Source: Escherichia coli (GTDB lineage: Bacteria; Pseudomonadota; Gammaproteobacteria; Enterobacterales; Enterobacteriaceae). From it: 64,000 bases of DNA. The number at the start of each line of letters is the position of its first letter. Position 1 is the first letter of the stretch. Shown here piece after piece: positions 56,101 to 59,100 of this stretch. The position numbers were made by a program. Where the stretch lies: NCBI RefSeq assembly GCF_016026235.1, contig NZ_CP065613.1. One strand, given 5' to 3'.

Positions 56101-59100
56101 GGATACACCAGAGAACGATGCAGCCTTCCCCCGCCAGACACATGCCGGGAACCCGGCGCTCTACCCGCAGGTCAAAATGGTCTGCCAGATGGAACTGACC
56201 AGCCATCTGCTGACGGCTGCAGCCTTCGGCACGATGAAGAACAGCGAAAATGAGCTTGCTGAGCAACTTATAGAACAAACCGGCGATAACACTCTGACGT
56301 TAATGGATAAAGGTTATTACTCACTGGGACTGTTAAATGCCTGGAGCCTGGCGGGAGAACACCGCCACTGGATGATACCTCTCAGAAAGGGAGCGCAATA
56401 TGAAGAGCTCAGAAAACTGGGTAAAGGCGATCATCTGGTGAAGCTGAAAACCAGCCCGCAGGCACGAAAAAGTGGCCGGGACTGGGAAATGAAGTGACAG
56501 CCCGCCTGCTGACCGTGACGCGCAAAGGAAAAGTCTGCCATCTGCTGACGTCGATGACGGACGCCATGCGCTTCCCCGGAGGAGAAATGGCGGATCTGTA
56601 CAGTCATCGCTGGGAAATCGAACTGGGATACAGGGAGATAAAACAGACGATGCAACTGAGCAGGCTGACGCTGAGAAGTAAAAAGCCGGAGCTTGTGGAG
56701 CAAGAGCTGTGGGGTGTCTTACTGGCTTATAATCTGGTGAGATATCAGATGATTAAAATGGCGGAACATCTGAAAGGTTACTGGCCGAATCAACTGAGTT
56801 TCTCAGAATCATGCGGAATGGTGATGAGAATGCTGATGACATTGCAGGGCGCTTCACCGGGACGTATACCGGAGCTGATGCGCGATCTTGCAAGTATGGG
56901 ACAACTTGTGAAATTACCGACGAGAAGGGGAAGGGCCTTCCCGAGAGTGGTAAAGGAGAGGCCCTGGAAATACCCCACAGCCCCGAAAAAGAGCCAGTCA
57001 GTTGCTTAACTGACTGGCATTACACCGGTCGGCAGCCCTTTTTTATCTATGATAGTGATTACTCAACCGTAACCGATTTTGCCAGGTTACGCGGCTGGTC
57101 AACGTCGGTGCCTTTGATCAGCGCGACATGGTAAGCCAGCAGCTGCAGCGGAACGGTGTAGAAGATCGGTGCAATCACCTCTTCCACATGCGGCATCTCG
57201 ATGATGTGCATGTTATCGCTACTTACAAAACCCGCATCCTGATCGGCGAAGACATACAACTGACCGCCACGTGCGCGAACTTCTTCAATGTTGGATTTCA
57301 GTTTTTCCAACAGTTCGTTGTTCGGTGCAACGACGATAACCGGCATATCCGCGTCAATCAGCGCCAGCGGGCCGTGTTTCAGCTCGCCTGCAGCGTAGGC
57401 TTCAGCGTGAATGTAAGAGATCTCTTTCAGCTTCAATGCGCCTTCCAGCGCGATTGGGTACTGATCGCCACGGCCCAGGAACAGCGCGTGATGTTTGTCA
57501 GAGAAATCTTCTGCCAGAGCTTCAATGCGTTTGTCCTGAGACAGCATCTGCTCAATACGGCTCGGCAGCGCCTGCAGACCATGCACAATGTCATGTTCAA
57601 TGGAGGCATCCAGACCTTTCAGGCGAGACAGCTTCGCCACCAGCATCAACAGCACAGTTAACTGAGTGGTGAATGCTTTAGTGGATGCCACGCCGATTTC
57701 CGTACCCGCGTTGGTCATCAGCGCCAGATCGGATTCGCGCACCAGAGAAGAACCCGGAACGTTACAGATTGCCAGCGAACCAAGGTAACCCAGCTCTTTC
57801 GACAGACGCAGGCCCGCCAGGGTATCCGCGGTTTCGCCAGACTGTGACAAGGTGATCATCAGGCTGTTACGACGCACGGCAGATTTGCGATAGCGGAATT
57901 CAGAGGCGATTTCGACGTCGCACGGAATACCTGCCAGCGATTCAAACCAGTAACGGGAAACCATACCGGAGTTATAAGAAGTACCACAGGCGAGGATCTG
58001 AATATGCTCAACCTTCGACAGCAGTTCGTCGGCGTTCGGTCCCAGCTCGCTTAAATCAACCTGACCGTGGCTGATGCGCCCGGTAAGGGTGTTTTTGATC
58101 GCGTTCGGCTGTTCGTAGATCTCTTTCTGCATGTAGTGACGGTAAATACCTTTATCGCCCGCGTCATATTGCAGATTGGATTCGATATCCTGACGTTTTA
58201 CTTCCGCGCCAGTTTTATCGAAGATGTTTACCGAACGGCGAGTAATTTCCGCAATATCGCCCTCTTCAAGGAAGATAAAGCGACGGGTCACCGGCAGCAG
58301 CGCCAGCTGGTCAGAAGCGATAAAGTTTTCGCCCATACCCAGACCAATCACCAGCGGACTACCAGAACGTGCCGCCAGCAGGGTATCCGGGTGACGGGAG
58401 TCCATGATCACTGTACCGTACGCACCACGCAGTTGCGGGATAGCACGCAGAACAGCCTCACGCAGAGTACCGCCCTGTTTCAGCTCCCAGTTCACCAGAT
58501 GGGCAATTACTTCGGTGTCTGTTTCAGAAACGAAGGTATAGCCACGCGCTTTTAACTCTTCGCGCAGCGGTTCATGGTTTTCGATGATGCCGTTATGCAC
58601 CACCACAATGTGTTCAGAAACATGCGGATGCGCATTCACTTCTGAAGGTTCACCGTGGGTCGCCCAGCGAGTATGAGCAATACCCGTACCGCCATGCAGA
58701 GGATGTTCTTCCGCTGCCTGAGCCAGCATCTGGACTTTACCGAGGCGACGCAGGCGGGTCATATGACCTTCCGCATCAACAACGGCCAGACCGGCAGAGT
58801 CATATCCGCGGTATTCCAGACGACGTAAACCTTCAAGAAGGATTTCTGCTACATCACGTTGCGCGATCGCGCCAACAATTCCACACATAGTTTTTGATTC
58901 CGATTTATATCGTTGTCGGTCAACCTGTATGCCCGTTTTTTCGGGCGCCCCGAGCCTTGTAGAGAGTGGGGTTATTTTTATAGTTACTGCTTGTGGGAGG
59001 GAGATTATGTTATCTCCTCATCCCAGATGACCGGATTACCCGGCCAGAATTACTTTTTCTTTACCGGACGACGCCAGCCTTCTTTCTGAGTCTGCGGCAC

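Follow-up and report, generated by a model that had tools for sequence, protein, structure and literature searches.

The palindrome in the glmU-glmS spacer of an Escherichia coli strain is probably the conserved second stem-loop of the glmS leader

Control of glmS in E. coli is a textbook case of activation by small RNAs and a determinant of intrinsic resistance to GlmS-targeting antibiotics. The closest known system is the K-12 glmUS leader with its GlmY-GlmZ-RapZ-Hfq circuit (Kalamorz 2007; Urban & Vogel 2008; Goepel review 2014). RNase E cleavage has been placed at the glmU stop codon (PMC1885654, PMC4152352), as shown only for K-12 (PMC1885654) and Salmonella (PMC5222698), and, downstream of that cleavage site, a figure legend describes "two adjacent stem-loops" (PMC4152352). 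The ribosome-binding region is sequestered when GlmZ is absent (PMC2267818, PMC4152352). GlmZ pairing was established by compensatory mutagenesis of C-27/G-36 of glmS against GlmZ G155/C165 (PMC2267818), and ARN motifs have been described together with their requirement (PMC3439879, PMC4152352). The rpoS leader, with which a parallel has been drawn (PMC2267818, PMC3439879), is likewise long and structured. It has an RBS-masking hairpin opened by Hfq-dependent sRNAs (DsrA, RprA and ArcZ, anti-antisense), and its upstream (AAN)n Hfq sites correspond to the A-rich, structure-flanked Hfq distal-face motifs upstream in glmS. The two differ in gene, sRNA and sequence, and the glmS leader originates from RNase E processing of the operon rather than from a promoter. 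In Gram-positive bacteria the glmS ribozyme (RF00234) is also a cis-acting RNA in the glmS leader serving GlcN6P feedback, whereas the mechanism in the E. coli leader involves a trans-acting sRNA. In-line probing of the E. coli spacer with GlcN6P gave no response (personal communication cited in PMC1885654), and the spacer analysed here had no match to RF00234 at the gathering score or at E <= 10.

The window, a 64,000-nt stretch of E. coli contig NZ_CP065613.1, contains the following genes in the ORF listing:

57059..58888, (-) strand: glmS
59050..60420, (-) strand: glmU

These coordinates define a spacer of exactly 58889..59049, or 161 nt, as the original prediction had stated, and the K-12 leader has the same locus, the same length and the same predicted two-hairpin fold of its 5' module. 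A 551-nt region was found in 5424 of 5426 complete E. coli genomes with glmU and glmS as annotated neighbours. The spacer is almost certainly the characterised glmUS intercistronic region, that is, the glmS 5' leader. Sequence comparison revealed five differences from K-12, all within leader nt 1-46: the stop codon is UAA for UGA, two substitutions fall within the loop of hairpin 1, and the linker has CAUCU for CACAU. From nt 47 to the AUG the leader does not differ from K-12, and this part includes the ribosome-binding region and GlmZ site as well as hairpin 2 and the ARN motifs. Since these regulatory elements are unchanged, normal glmS regulation is to be expected in this strain. For the 5' part of the leader, the exact 81-nt allele occurs in 571 of 5002 matched E. 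coli genomes and is a common natural variant. The spacer had been predicted to be the place of glmUS processing and of GlmZ control of glmS, in agreement with the literature (PMC4152352, PMC2267818, PMC1885654). No Rfam family matched the leader at the gathering score, the sole match at E <= 10 being a chance miRNA, and a scan of the spacer matched no sigma-70-like promoter for glmS.

The 5' part of the leader and the processing site upstream of it comprise three features:

59050..59052, (-) strand: glmU stop codon (UAA; UGA in K-12), the major RNase E processing site by homology
59028..59046, (-) strand: hairpin 1, UGGCCGG-GUAAU-CCGGUCA, -11.2 kcal/mol, z = -3.6
58994..59025, (-) strand: hairpin 2, the palindrome of the original prediction, UGGGAUGAGGAGAU-AACAUA-AUCUCCCUCCCA, the 5' boundary of the conserved glmS leader

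By homology, cleavage at the glmU stop codon would yield a monocistronic glmS mRNA with a 161-nt leader. The A/U-rich cleavage context, GUAA/UUCU with the cut at the slash, is retained in the sequence with U at +2. A minor 5' end was mapped in K-12 between CACAU and GGG, which is the 5' base of hairpin 2 (PMC1885654); the CAUCU linker of this strain adjoins that position. Hairpin 1 is restricted to Escherichia and polymorphic within E. coli. It is kept via compensatory changes in E. albertii, its 5' arm is broken in strain ET245, and REP-like insertions stand in its place in other genera.

The (+) strand of 58994..59025 reads tgggagggagat-tatgtt-atctcctcatccca. Read as glmS mRNA, the inner stem has 6 bp (GGAGAU/AUCUCC) and is followed by an asymmetric internal loop, on account of which a generic inverted-repeat finder missed the palindrome, and by an outer GGG/CCC stem. 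The 46-nt stretch of hairpin 2 alone folds at -15.5 kcal/mol (z = -2.8; 4 of 200 shuffles were as good), and the 63-nt 5' module of hairpins 1 and 2 at -26.7 kcal/mol (z = -4.6; 0 of 200). The whole leader has a z of -3.5, with none of 200 shuffles as stable, so the stable structure expected of this spacer was found. Across 27 Enterobacteriaceae, the pairing of hairpin 2 is kept by compensatory changes: 95% of cells are paired and all four inner-stem pairs have changed on both sides. The covariation score was 0.206, compared to 0.125 for shuffles, which do not correct for phylogeny and of which 0 of 500 reached it, and to at most 0.10 for slid controls. RNAalifold predicted the hairpin independently. 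The alignment contains 18 G-U cells and 2 A-C cells, which favours the glmS-sense RNA strand. The palindrome originally noted around 58990..59025 is therefore very probably a real, conserved hairpin rather than a chance repeat. The outer stem and the GAGG/CC positions hardly vary, suggesting that part of the conservation may be sequence-specific and not structural. Within the published scheme, to the extent of that figure legend, the palindrome is the second of the two stem-loops (PMC4152352).

The position of hairpin 2 is tied to the leader. In 27-28 Enterobacteriaceae sequences its distance to an invariant box downstream is 51-57 nt, whereas its distance to the glmU stop is 7-130 nt, with REP-like insertions between. 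The fixed spacing on one side and the variable spacing on the other suggest that hairpin 2 belongs to the glmS leader and not to the RNase E site. The sequence immediately upstream of it is unalignable in the same taxa, in which only 12 of 100 third codon positions are invariant. A new point is thus that hairpin 2 appears, from comparative sequence analysis, to be under structural selection and to travel with the glmS leader. Mixta and Photorhabdus have the box and a GlmZ-type site in spacers of ~106 nt without an intergenic hairpin, indicating that a hairpin at this place is not indispensable. Yersinia, Serratia, Dickeya, Pectobacterium and Rahnella have an unrelated hairpin (GUUUUG...CAAAAC) at the equivalent position.

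Downstream of hairpin 2, the leader contains:

58971..58991, (-) strand: A-rich single-stranded tract with two (ARN)3 motifs, AGCAGUAAC (58983..58991) and AAAAAUAAC (58971..58979)
58948..58971, (-) strand: invariant 24-nt box CCCCACUCUCUACAAGGCUCGGGG, whose 16-nt loop sits on a CCCC/GGGG stem
58931..58946, (-) strand: hairpin 3 of the fold, GCCCG-AAAAAA-CGGGC
58909..58929, (-) strand: GlmZ pairing site (-41..-21), UACAGGUUGACCGACAACGAU, which makes up the inhibitory structure's left half
58886..58903, (-) strand: ribosome-binding region UCGGAAUCAA and glmS AUG (58886..58888), predicted to pair with the GlmZ-site segment

The A-rich tract is a putative Hfq distal-face binding platform. Its two upstream (ARN)3 motifs are present and conserved, appearing in alignments as GCAGUA and AUAAAAAUAA; the published ARN motifs would correspond to these exact triplets. 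In the box, 23 of 24 columns are invariant among the 27 Enterobacteriaceae. A close variant occurs in 50 of the 80 sequences scanned; the box-positive set consists of the window and 48 of 49 usable Enterobacterales loci (L004-L053), with none from L054 on, and the search pattern missed a box variant in Hafnia (L052). Hairpin 3 varies in sequence among genera and keeps its pairing (GCCCG/CGGGC, CUCCGG/CCGGA, GUCCG/CGGAC, AACCGGC/GCCGGAU).

GlmZ pairing was scanned in windows and corrected for opening energies, with K-12 GlmZ, as the window does not include this strain's glmZ gene; when RNAduplex was simply run on the leader and full-length GlmZ, the resulting 160-nt duplex had no meaning. The top-ranked and only favourable site pairs GlmZ nt 149-170 with -41..-21 at a total of -8.3 kcal/mol (hybrid -19.2 kcal/mol). 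This agrees with the mutationally proven site at -41..-19 (PMC2267818, PMC4152352). Complementarity of GlmZ nt ~150-169 to about -41..-19 is present, and K-12 has the same sequence in this segment. The spacer thus has both a stable structure and GlmZ complementarity, and the original prediction stands in these respects. In the MFE fold and in RNAalifold the GlmZ-site segment pairs with the start-codon region, in the published model with the SD; since none of these columns varies, covariation offers no way to choose between the two. Additional pairing of GlmZ 28-38 or 61-66 with the loop of the box was discarded as too weak, at -4.7 and -4.6 kcal/mol.

We consider it likely that the spacer is the characterised enterobacterial glmS leader and that the palindrome is its conserved stem-loop 2. 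In this strain glmU and glmS would be co-transcribed and the transcript cut at the stop codon of glmU by RNase E. The processed glmS mRNA would carry the 161-nt leader, with the ribosome-binding region masked by nt -41..-19. Full-length GlmZ, aided by Hfq on the upstream ARN motifs, would pair with the masking segment and free the ribosome-binding site, so that glmS is activated and stabilised. Hairpin 2 would mark where the conserved leader begins on its 5' side, with the ARN/Hfq platform immediately downstream. There it may act as a structural bookend that insulates the single-stranded ARN tract and the box from the hypervariable, repeat-invaded upstream sequence, and may also give the leader a stable hairpin near its 5' end, restricting further trimming or attack at that end. 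That a minor 5' end maps exactly to the hairpin base points to the protective function. Hairpin 2 resembles the ompA-type 5' stabiliser stem-loops in being stable and near the 5' end of an mRNA under RNase E-dependent decay; the major processed 5' end of glmS lies 27 nt upstream of it, which leaves a single-stranded, monophosphorylated tail. We put the bookend or protective role forward tentatively, as a plausible reading that may well not hold. The GlmZ and RNase E steps have been demonstrated by others on a sequence identical to this one from leader nt 47 onward.

RNase E sites are often flanked by structure, and in E. coli hairpins 1 and 2 stand close to the glmU stop, starting 6 and 27 nt past it. 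Both observations would fit the suggestion of the 2014 review that hairpin 2, together with hairpin 1, directs RNase E to the stop codon. The spacings argue against this (7-130 nt from the stop to hairpin 2 but a constant 51-57 nt from the hairpin to the leader box), as does hairpin 1, which is unconserved outside Escherichia and broken in one E. coli isolate. This role is therefore unlikely.

There is a small chance that the stretch 58948..59025, made up of hairpin 2, the C-rich tract and the box, is a second control module beyond the GlmZ/Hfq model, perhaps serving in Rho loading or attenuation or binding a further protein or RNA. If true, this would explain why the box is more conserved than the GlmZ site across Enterobacterales. 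In the Rho version, a rut-like tract in the leader is partly sequestered by hairpin 2, and attenuation, countered by GlmZ/Hfq or by translation, adds to the discoordinate expression of glmU and glmS. The glmS leader is long and untranslated, and Rho termination under sRNA control has established precedent in long leaders, rpoS being an example. The most C-rich, G-poor 60-nt segment of the glmUS mRNA is 59010..58951 (21 C, 5 G; C/G 4.2 versus a median of 0.88), which begins in the 3' arm of hairpin 2 and extends through the box loop. However, base composition by itself says little, a rut site does not usually have an invariant sequence as this tract does, and nothing specific connecting Rho or bicyclomycin with glmS came out of a literature search. 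Full-length glmUS also accumulates on RNase E inactivation (PMC1885654). A Rho-loading tract is accordingly slightly less probable still than a second module of any kind.

That the palindrome is an inverted repeat that arose by chance, or what is left of a REP-like or other repeat, without a function of its own, is highly improbable. Hairpin 2 alone is only moderately stable (z = -2.8), and in several genera its 5' arm (GGGGUGAGGGG) abuts GGGGAGAGGGCCGGGGUGAGGG-type repeat copies, but the compensatory changes retain pairing and the box spacing is fixed, in taxa where the upstream sequence is unalignable and 12% of third codon positions are invariant. It is also single-copy. The 44-nt hairpin 2 stretch occurs once in 5424 of 5426 E. 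coli genomes, with no difference in 3487 and with an identity of at least 95% (~2 mismatches at most) in the remaining 1938 matching records, and the 44-nt and 81-nt queries matched a median of one place per E. coli genome, so no dispersed repeat (REP/BIME, ERIC or other) was evident. The weakest reading, implied in the original prediction, makes the palindrome the GlmZ pairing site or an auxiliary one and can practically be dismissed: it lies in the same 161-nt leader, and its hairpin loop region (GAUAACAU) is complementary to GlmZ 150-158 over 7 bp, but the best interaction touching it is unfavourable at a net +1.1 kcal/mol after opening costs versus -8.3 kcal/mol at 58909..58929, ~65-85 nt downstream, the proven site is -41..-19 (PMC2267818), and the inner stem and loop vary by genus whereas GlmZ targets the conserved ACAGGU...GACAAC. 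We are thus very confident that the palindrome is not the GlmZ site, and the implied link between it and glmUS processing did not hold up either, the RNase E site being the glmU stop codon.

Hairpin 2 is followed by CAAGCAGUAAC with no U tract, and a scan of both strands of 58889..59049 found no intrinsic terminator-like site. A K-turn in its AUGA internal loop was ruled out, the opposite strand being all pyrimidine. A mini-ORF in the 5' arm (AUG AGG AGA UAA) was rejected as a gene: it has no upstream SD, its length and frame vary among genera, and an AUG or GUG is present in 24 of the 27 sequences, leaving three taxa without a start codon. The leader, the palindromic hairpin and the GlmZ circuit are already known, and the finding is essentially ordinary. 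The modest new points are the structural selection that stem-loop 2 appears to be under and the adjacent 24-nt box, which is almost invariant across the order and for which no published function was found; a full-text literature search found no mention of the hairpin 2 or box sequences.

Both ends of the glmS message had been singled out as deserving a look. At the 5' end this was not borne out: the elements are identical to K-12, the allele is common and the end is without strain-specific peculiarity. At the 3' end, the claimed disruption of the terminator by IS4 is real:

57023..57044, (-) strand: orphaned 5' half of the glmS intrinsic terminator, AAAAAAGGGCUGCC-GACC-GGUG
56983..57018, (-) strand: terminator-like hairpin in the IS4 end, GCCAGUCAGUU-AAGC-AACUGACUGGC, then UCUUUUU; 11-bp stem, 4-nt loop
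55598..57022, (+) strand: IS4, 1425 bp, convergent with glmS, with a 13-bp duplication
55575..55597, (-) strand: second target-duplication copy and 3' half of the original terminator, CUGCCGACCGGUG-GCCCUUUUUU

The 1425-bp IS4 and its 13-bp duplication split the terminator, whose 5' half ends in one copy of the duplication (57023..57035). The element is 98.6% identical to annotated IS4 copies, and its transposase is frameshifted by a 1-nt deletion near 56472. Excising IS4 and one duplication copy restores the sequence of strain EC2641 exactly. The terminator-like hairpin that the IS4 terminus supplies in replacement lies 41 nt past the glmS stop codon and is likely where the glmS mRNA now ends, so the message is not expected to be left without a defined 3' end.

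The ORF map places the glmU-glmS spacer at 58889..59049 (161 nt), as originally predicted, with atpC and atpD upstream of the gene pair. The spacer RNA forms the glmS leader, and the sequence of the locus on the glmS mRNA strand was read as follows, from 5' to 3':

59050..60420 (-), glmU (ORF map)
59050..59052 (-), glmU stop codon UAA, followed by UUCU
(-), hairpin 1, GGCCGG-GUAAU-CCGGUC, followed by AUCU
58994..59025 (-), hairpin 2, GGGAUGAGGAGAU-AACAUA-AUCUCCCUCCC
3' of hairpin 2 (-), A-rich tract AGCAGUAACUAUAAAAAUAA
58948..58971 (-), after the A-rich tract, box CCCCACUCUCUACAAGGCUCGGGG, 24 nt
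after the box (-), hairpin 3, GCCCG-A6-CGGGC
after hairpin 3 (-), AUACAGGUUGACCGACAACGAU, then AUAAAUCGGAAUCAAAAACU, then the glmS AUG
57059..58888 (-), glmS (ORF map)

The palindrome proposed for the spacer is real and corresponds to hairpin 2, which folded stably by itself (-15.5 kcal/mol, z = -2.8 against shuffles). Hairpins 1 and 2 folded jointly gave -26.7 kcal/mol (z = -4.6, 0 of 200 shuffles), and the full leader gave z = -3.5. No Rfam family spans the spacer.

glmU and glmS are co-transcribed, and RNase E cleaves the message at the glmU stop codon (PMC1885654, PMC4152352), a site also present in Salmonella TIER-seq data (PMC5222698). It is established in the literature that the 161-nt leader sequesters the ribosome-binding site of glmS. 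The affinity of Hfq for the leader corresponds to a KD of ~30 nM, and of the leader's two upstream (ARN)x motifs one is essential (PMC3439879). Of the two adjacent stem-loops drawn downstream of the RNase E site, hairpin 2 corresponds to the second, and the palindrome is therefore already drawn in the literature (PMC4152352). Primer extension in K-12 revealed a minor 5' end between CACAU and GGG, precisely at the 5' base of hairpin 2 (PMC1885654).

Within E. coli, the 551 nt around the spacer matched 5424 of 5426 complete genomes, invariably flanked by annotated glmU and glmS. The leader differs from that of K-12 MG1655 at five positions, all inside leader nt 1-46: the glmU stop (UAA here, UGA in K-12), two bases of the hairpin 1 loop and two of the linker before hairpin 2 (CAUCU here, CACAU in K-12). 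From hairpin 2 through the AUG the sequence is 100% the same as in K-12; by sequence, the element is the already known leader with K-12 regulatory sequences. Of 5002 matched genomes, 571 carry the exact 81-nt allele of the leader 5' part. Changes among sampled variants were confined to the stop codon, hairpin 1, the linker and two hairpin 2 positions, namely the outermost G and the lone unpaired residue on the 3' side of the internal loop. Hairpin 2 (44 nt) is single-copy and identical in 3487 genomes, with at least 95% identity (~2 mismatches at most) in the remaining 1938 matching records. At the stop codon, where RNase E also processes the transcript, E. coli strains differ: it is UAA in the window, S88 and AVS0750 and UGA in K-12, O157 and ET245.

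For comparison between species, species-representative genomes were scanned with the GlmS N-terminus, giving 80 loci, each with 700 nt of upstream sequence. Spacers were 106-370 nt in free-living Enterobacterales, and short or unrelated in Aeromonas, Gilliamella and others. In an alignment of 27 Enterobacteriaceae (A2), hairpin 2 was conserved with covariation, its arms pairing as GGAGAU/AUCUCC, GGGGAU/AUCCCC, GGGUGA/UCACCC, GGGUAAU/AUUACCC or GGGGAA/UUCCUC, for example. Paired cells made up 95% of the hairpin, and double changes occurred at all four inner-stem pairs. The covariation score was 0.206, compared to 0.125 for shuffles (0 of 500 reached 0.206), slid registers scored no higher than 0.10, and RNAalifold recovered the stem independently. 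The 18 G-U cells compared to 2 A-C cells point to a strand-specific structure, formed by the sense-strand RNA and not by DNA or the antisense strand. Across glmS codons 1-100 in these taxa, just 12 of the 100 third positions were invariant, a sign that neutral sites are saturated, which argues that leader conservation is selective. Hairpin 1 was limited to Escherichia. Outside Enterobacteriaceae, Yersinia, Serratia, Rahnella, Dickeya, Pectobacterium and Brenneria carry another hairpin (GUUUUG...CAAAAC) directly 5' of the box, Pantoea has a plain GC hairpin farther upstream, and the Mixta and Photorhabdus spacers have no hairpin upstream of the box.

Hairpin 2 is most likely part of the leader architecture, because its spacing is constant to the ARN motifs and to the box (51-57 nt to the latter in Enterobacteriaceae) and not to the stop codon. 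It may act as a fast-folding local stem-loop that protects the single-stranded Hfq platform, together with the box, from upstream sequence, whatever its nature, and would supply a structured 5'-proximal end, a role consistent with the minor 5' end mapped to its base. Alternatively, it has been suggested to be an element that RNase E recognises when cutting at the stop codon (PMC4152352). This may hold for E. coli, where the stop-to-hairpin spacing is short, but as a conserved function it is at odds with the same segment across Enterobacteriaceae, which is hypervariable (7-130 nt) and full of REP-like and other repeats. What is added here to the known element is comparative only: covariation support for the second stem-loop, its fixed tie to the leader and the unexplained invariant box adjoining it.

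REP/BIME-like sequences lie between the glmU stop and hairpin 2 in loci L006, L009, L016, L017, L021, L026-L028 and L043. In the same set a CCCTCTCCCC...GGGGAGAGGGCCGGGGTGAGGG-type repeat also fills this segment, and its 3' end fuses with the hairpin 2 5' arm, giving an alternative pairing partner, CCCCTCACCCC. Several Enterobacteriaceae carry ERIC-like elements (~125-150 nt, core GGGAGCTTACTnAAGTAAGTGACCG) within the leader, between hairpin 3 and the GlmZ site; loci with such elements in the upstream 700 nt are L008, L011, L013, L019 and L028, and also L046, L047 and L040. The leader evidently tolerates big structured insertions at that single point. In Serratia and Erwinia, ERIC-like elements lie upstream of the leader. 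The hairpin 2 5' arm also contains a mini-ORF, AUG AGG AGA UAA (59009..59020, -), whose start position retains AUG or GUG in 24 of 27 genera; with no Shine-Dalgarno (SD) sequence and no conserved frame or length in these genera, it is probably not translated.

Of the 24 box positions, 23 were invariant across the 27 Enterobacteriaceae, a level of conservation above that of the GlmZ site. A recognisable copy is present in the window and in 48 of 49 usable Enterobacterales loci (L004 to L053), the pattern search having missed a variant box in Hafnia (L052), and in none from L054 onward. A literature search gave no published function for it. The 60-nt segment 59010..58951 (-) contains 21 C and 5 G, by far the strongest C-over-G bias of the glmUS mRNA (operon median C/G 0.88). 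This rut-like composition would suit a Rho-loading tract, but a literature search on Rho loading at glmS yielded nothing, and we consider this reading improbable.

The leader positions -41..-19 pair with GlmZ nt 150-157 and 163-169, as proven by compensatory mutations (C-27/G-36 with G155/C165; PMC2267818). In a scan of K-12 GlmZ (L003:933-1139) against the leader, each 26-nt window was scored by its duplex energy plus the cost of opening the two RNAs. The top interaction joined GlmZ 149-170 to -41..-21 (58929..58909), with a total of -8.3 and hybridisation of -19.2 kcal/mol; the runner-up site reached -4.7 kcal/mol. The best interaction touching hairpin 2 was +1.1 kcal/mol, which rules out the palindrome as the GlmZ site. 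The spacer thus holds both GlmZ complementarity and stable structure, and the original prediction of a GlmZ pairing region stands for the spacer, the palindrome being separate from the site by ~65-85 nt. In RNAalifold on alignment A4 (58874..58929, -), the GlmZ-target segment ACAGGU..GC..ACA pairs with glmS codons 1-5, UGUGUGGAAUUGU, unlike the literature drawing, in which it pairs with the SD. All these pairing columns are invariant, and covariation is silent between the two partners.

At the glmS 3' end, an insertion was mapped:

55598..57022, IS4, 1425 bp, convergent with glmS, 36 nt past its stop codon
55664..56497 and 56494..57009, pieces of the IS4 transposase ORF, split by a frameshift near 56472

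A 13-bp duplication, CTGCCGACCGGTG, borders IS4 on both sides. When the element and one duplication copy were removed in silico, the result was exactly the sequence of strain EC2641, in which the hairpin AAAAAAGGGCUGCC-GACC-GGUGGCCCUUUUUU is intact; the disruption of the glmS terminator had thus been called correctly. A search of 5426 complete E. coli genomes found the identical insertion, by site and orientation, in 4 of them. The frameshift reflects a 1-nt deletion compared to the strain E10 copy. At the IS4 end facing glmS, an 11-bp hairpin is followed by UCUUUUU (57018..56983), and the glmS message probably still ends at this predicted terminator, ~35-40 nt longer than before. IS4 also lies between feaB and tynA in many other genomes.

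Further features of the window, the RNAs being Rfam matches at gathering score, are:

5977..6049 (-), ROSE_2 thermoregulator element
16181..16223 (+), ES036/CssrF
21700..21780 (+), AsdA, antisense RNA of dnaA mRNA
60504..60661 (+), STnc410, in the atpC-glmU gap and antisense with respect to the operon
53968..54699, lpfB
54747..55319, lpfA, 190-aa ORF

Downstream of glmS lies this lpf-O113 long polar fimbria operon (53968..55319), not the K-12 glmS-pstS arrangement, and the greatest divergence from the closest genomes (~96% identity overall) lies in lpfA.
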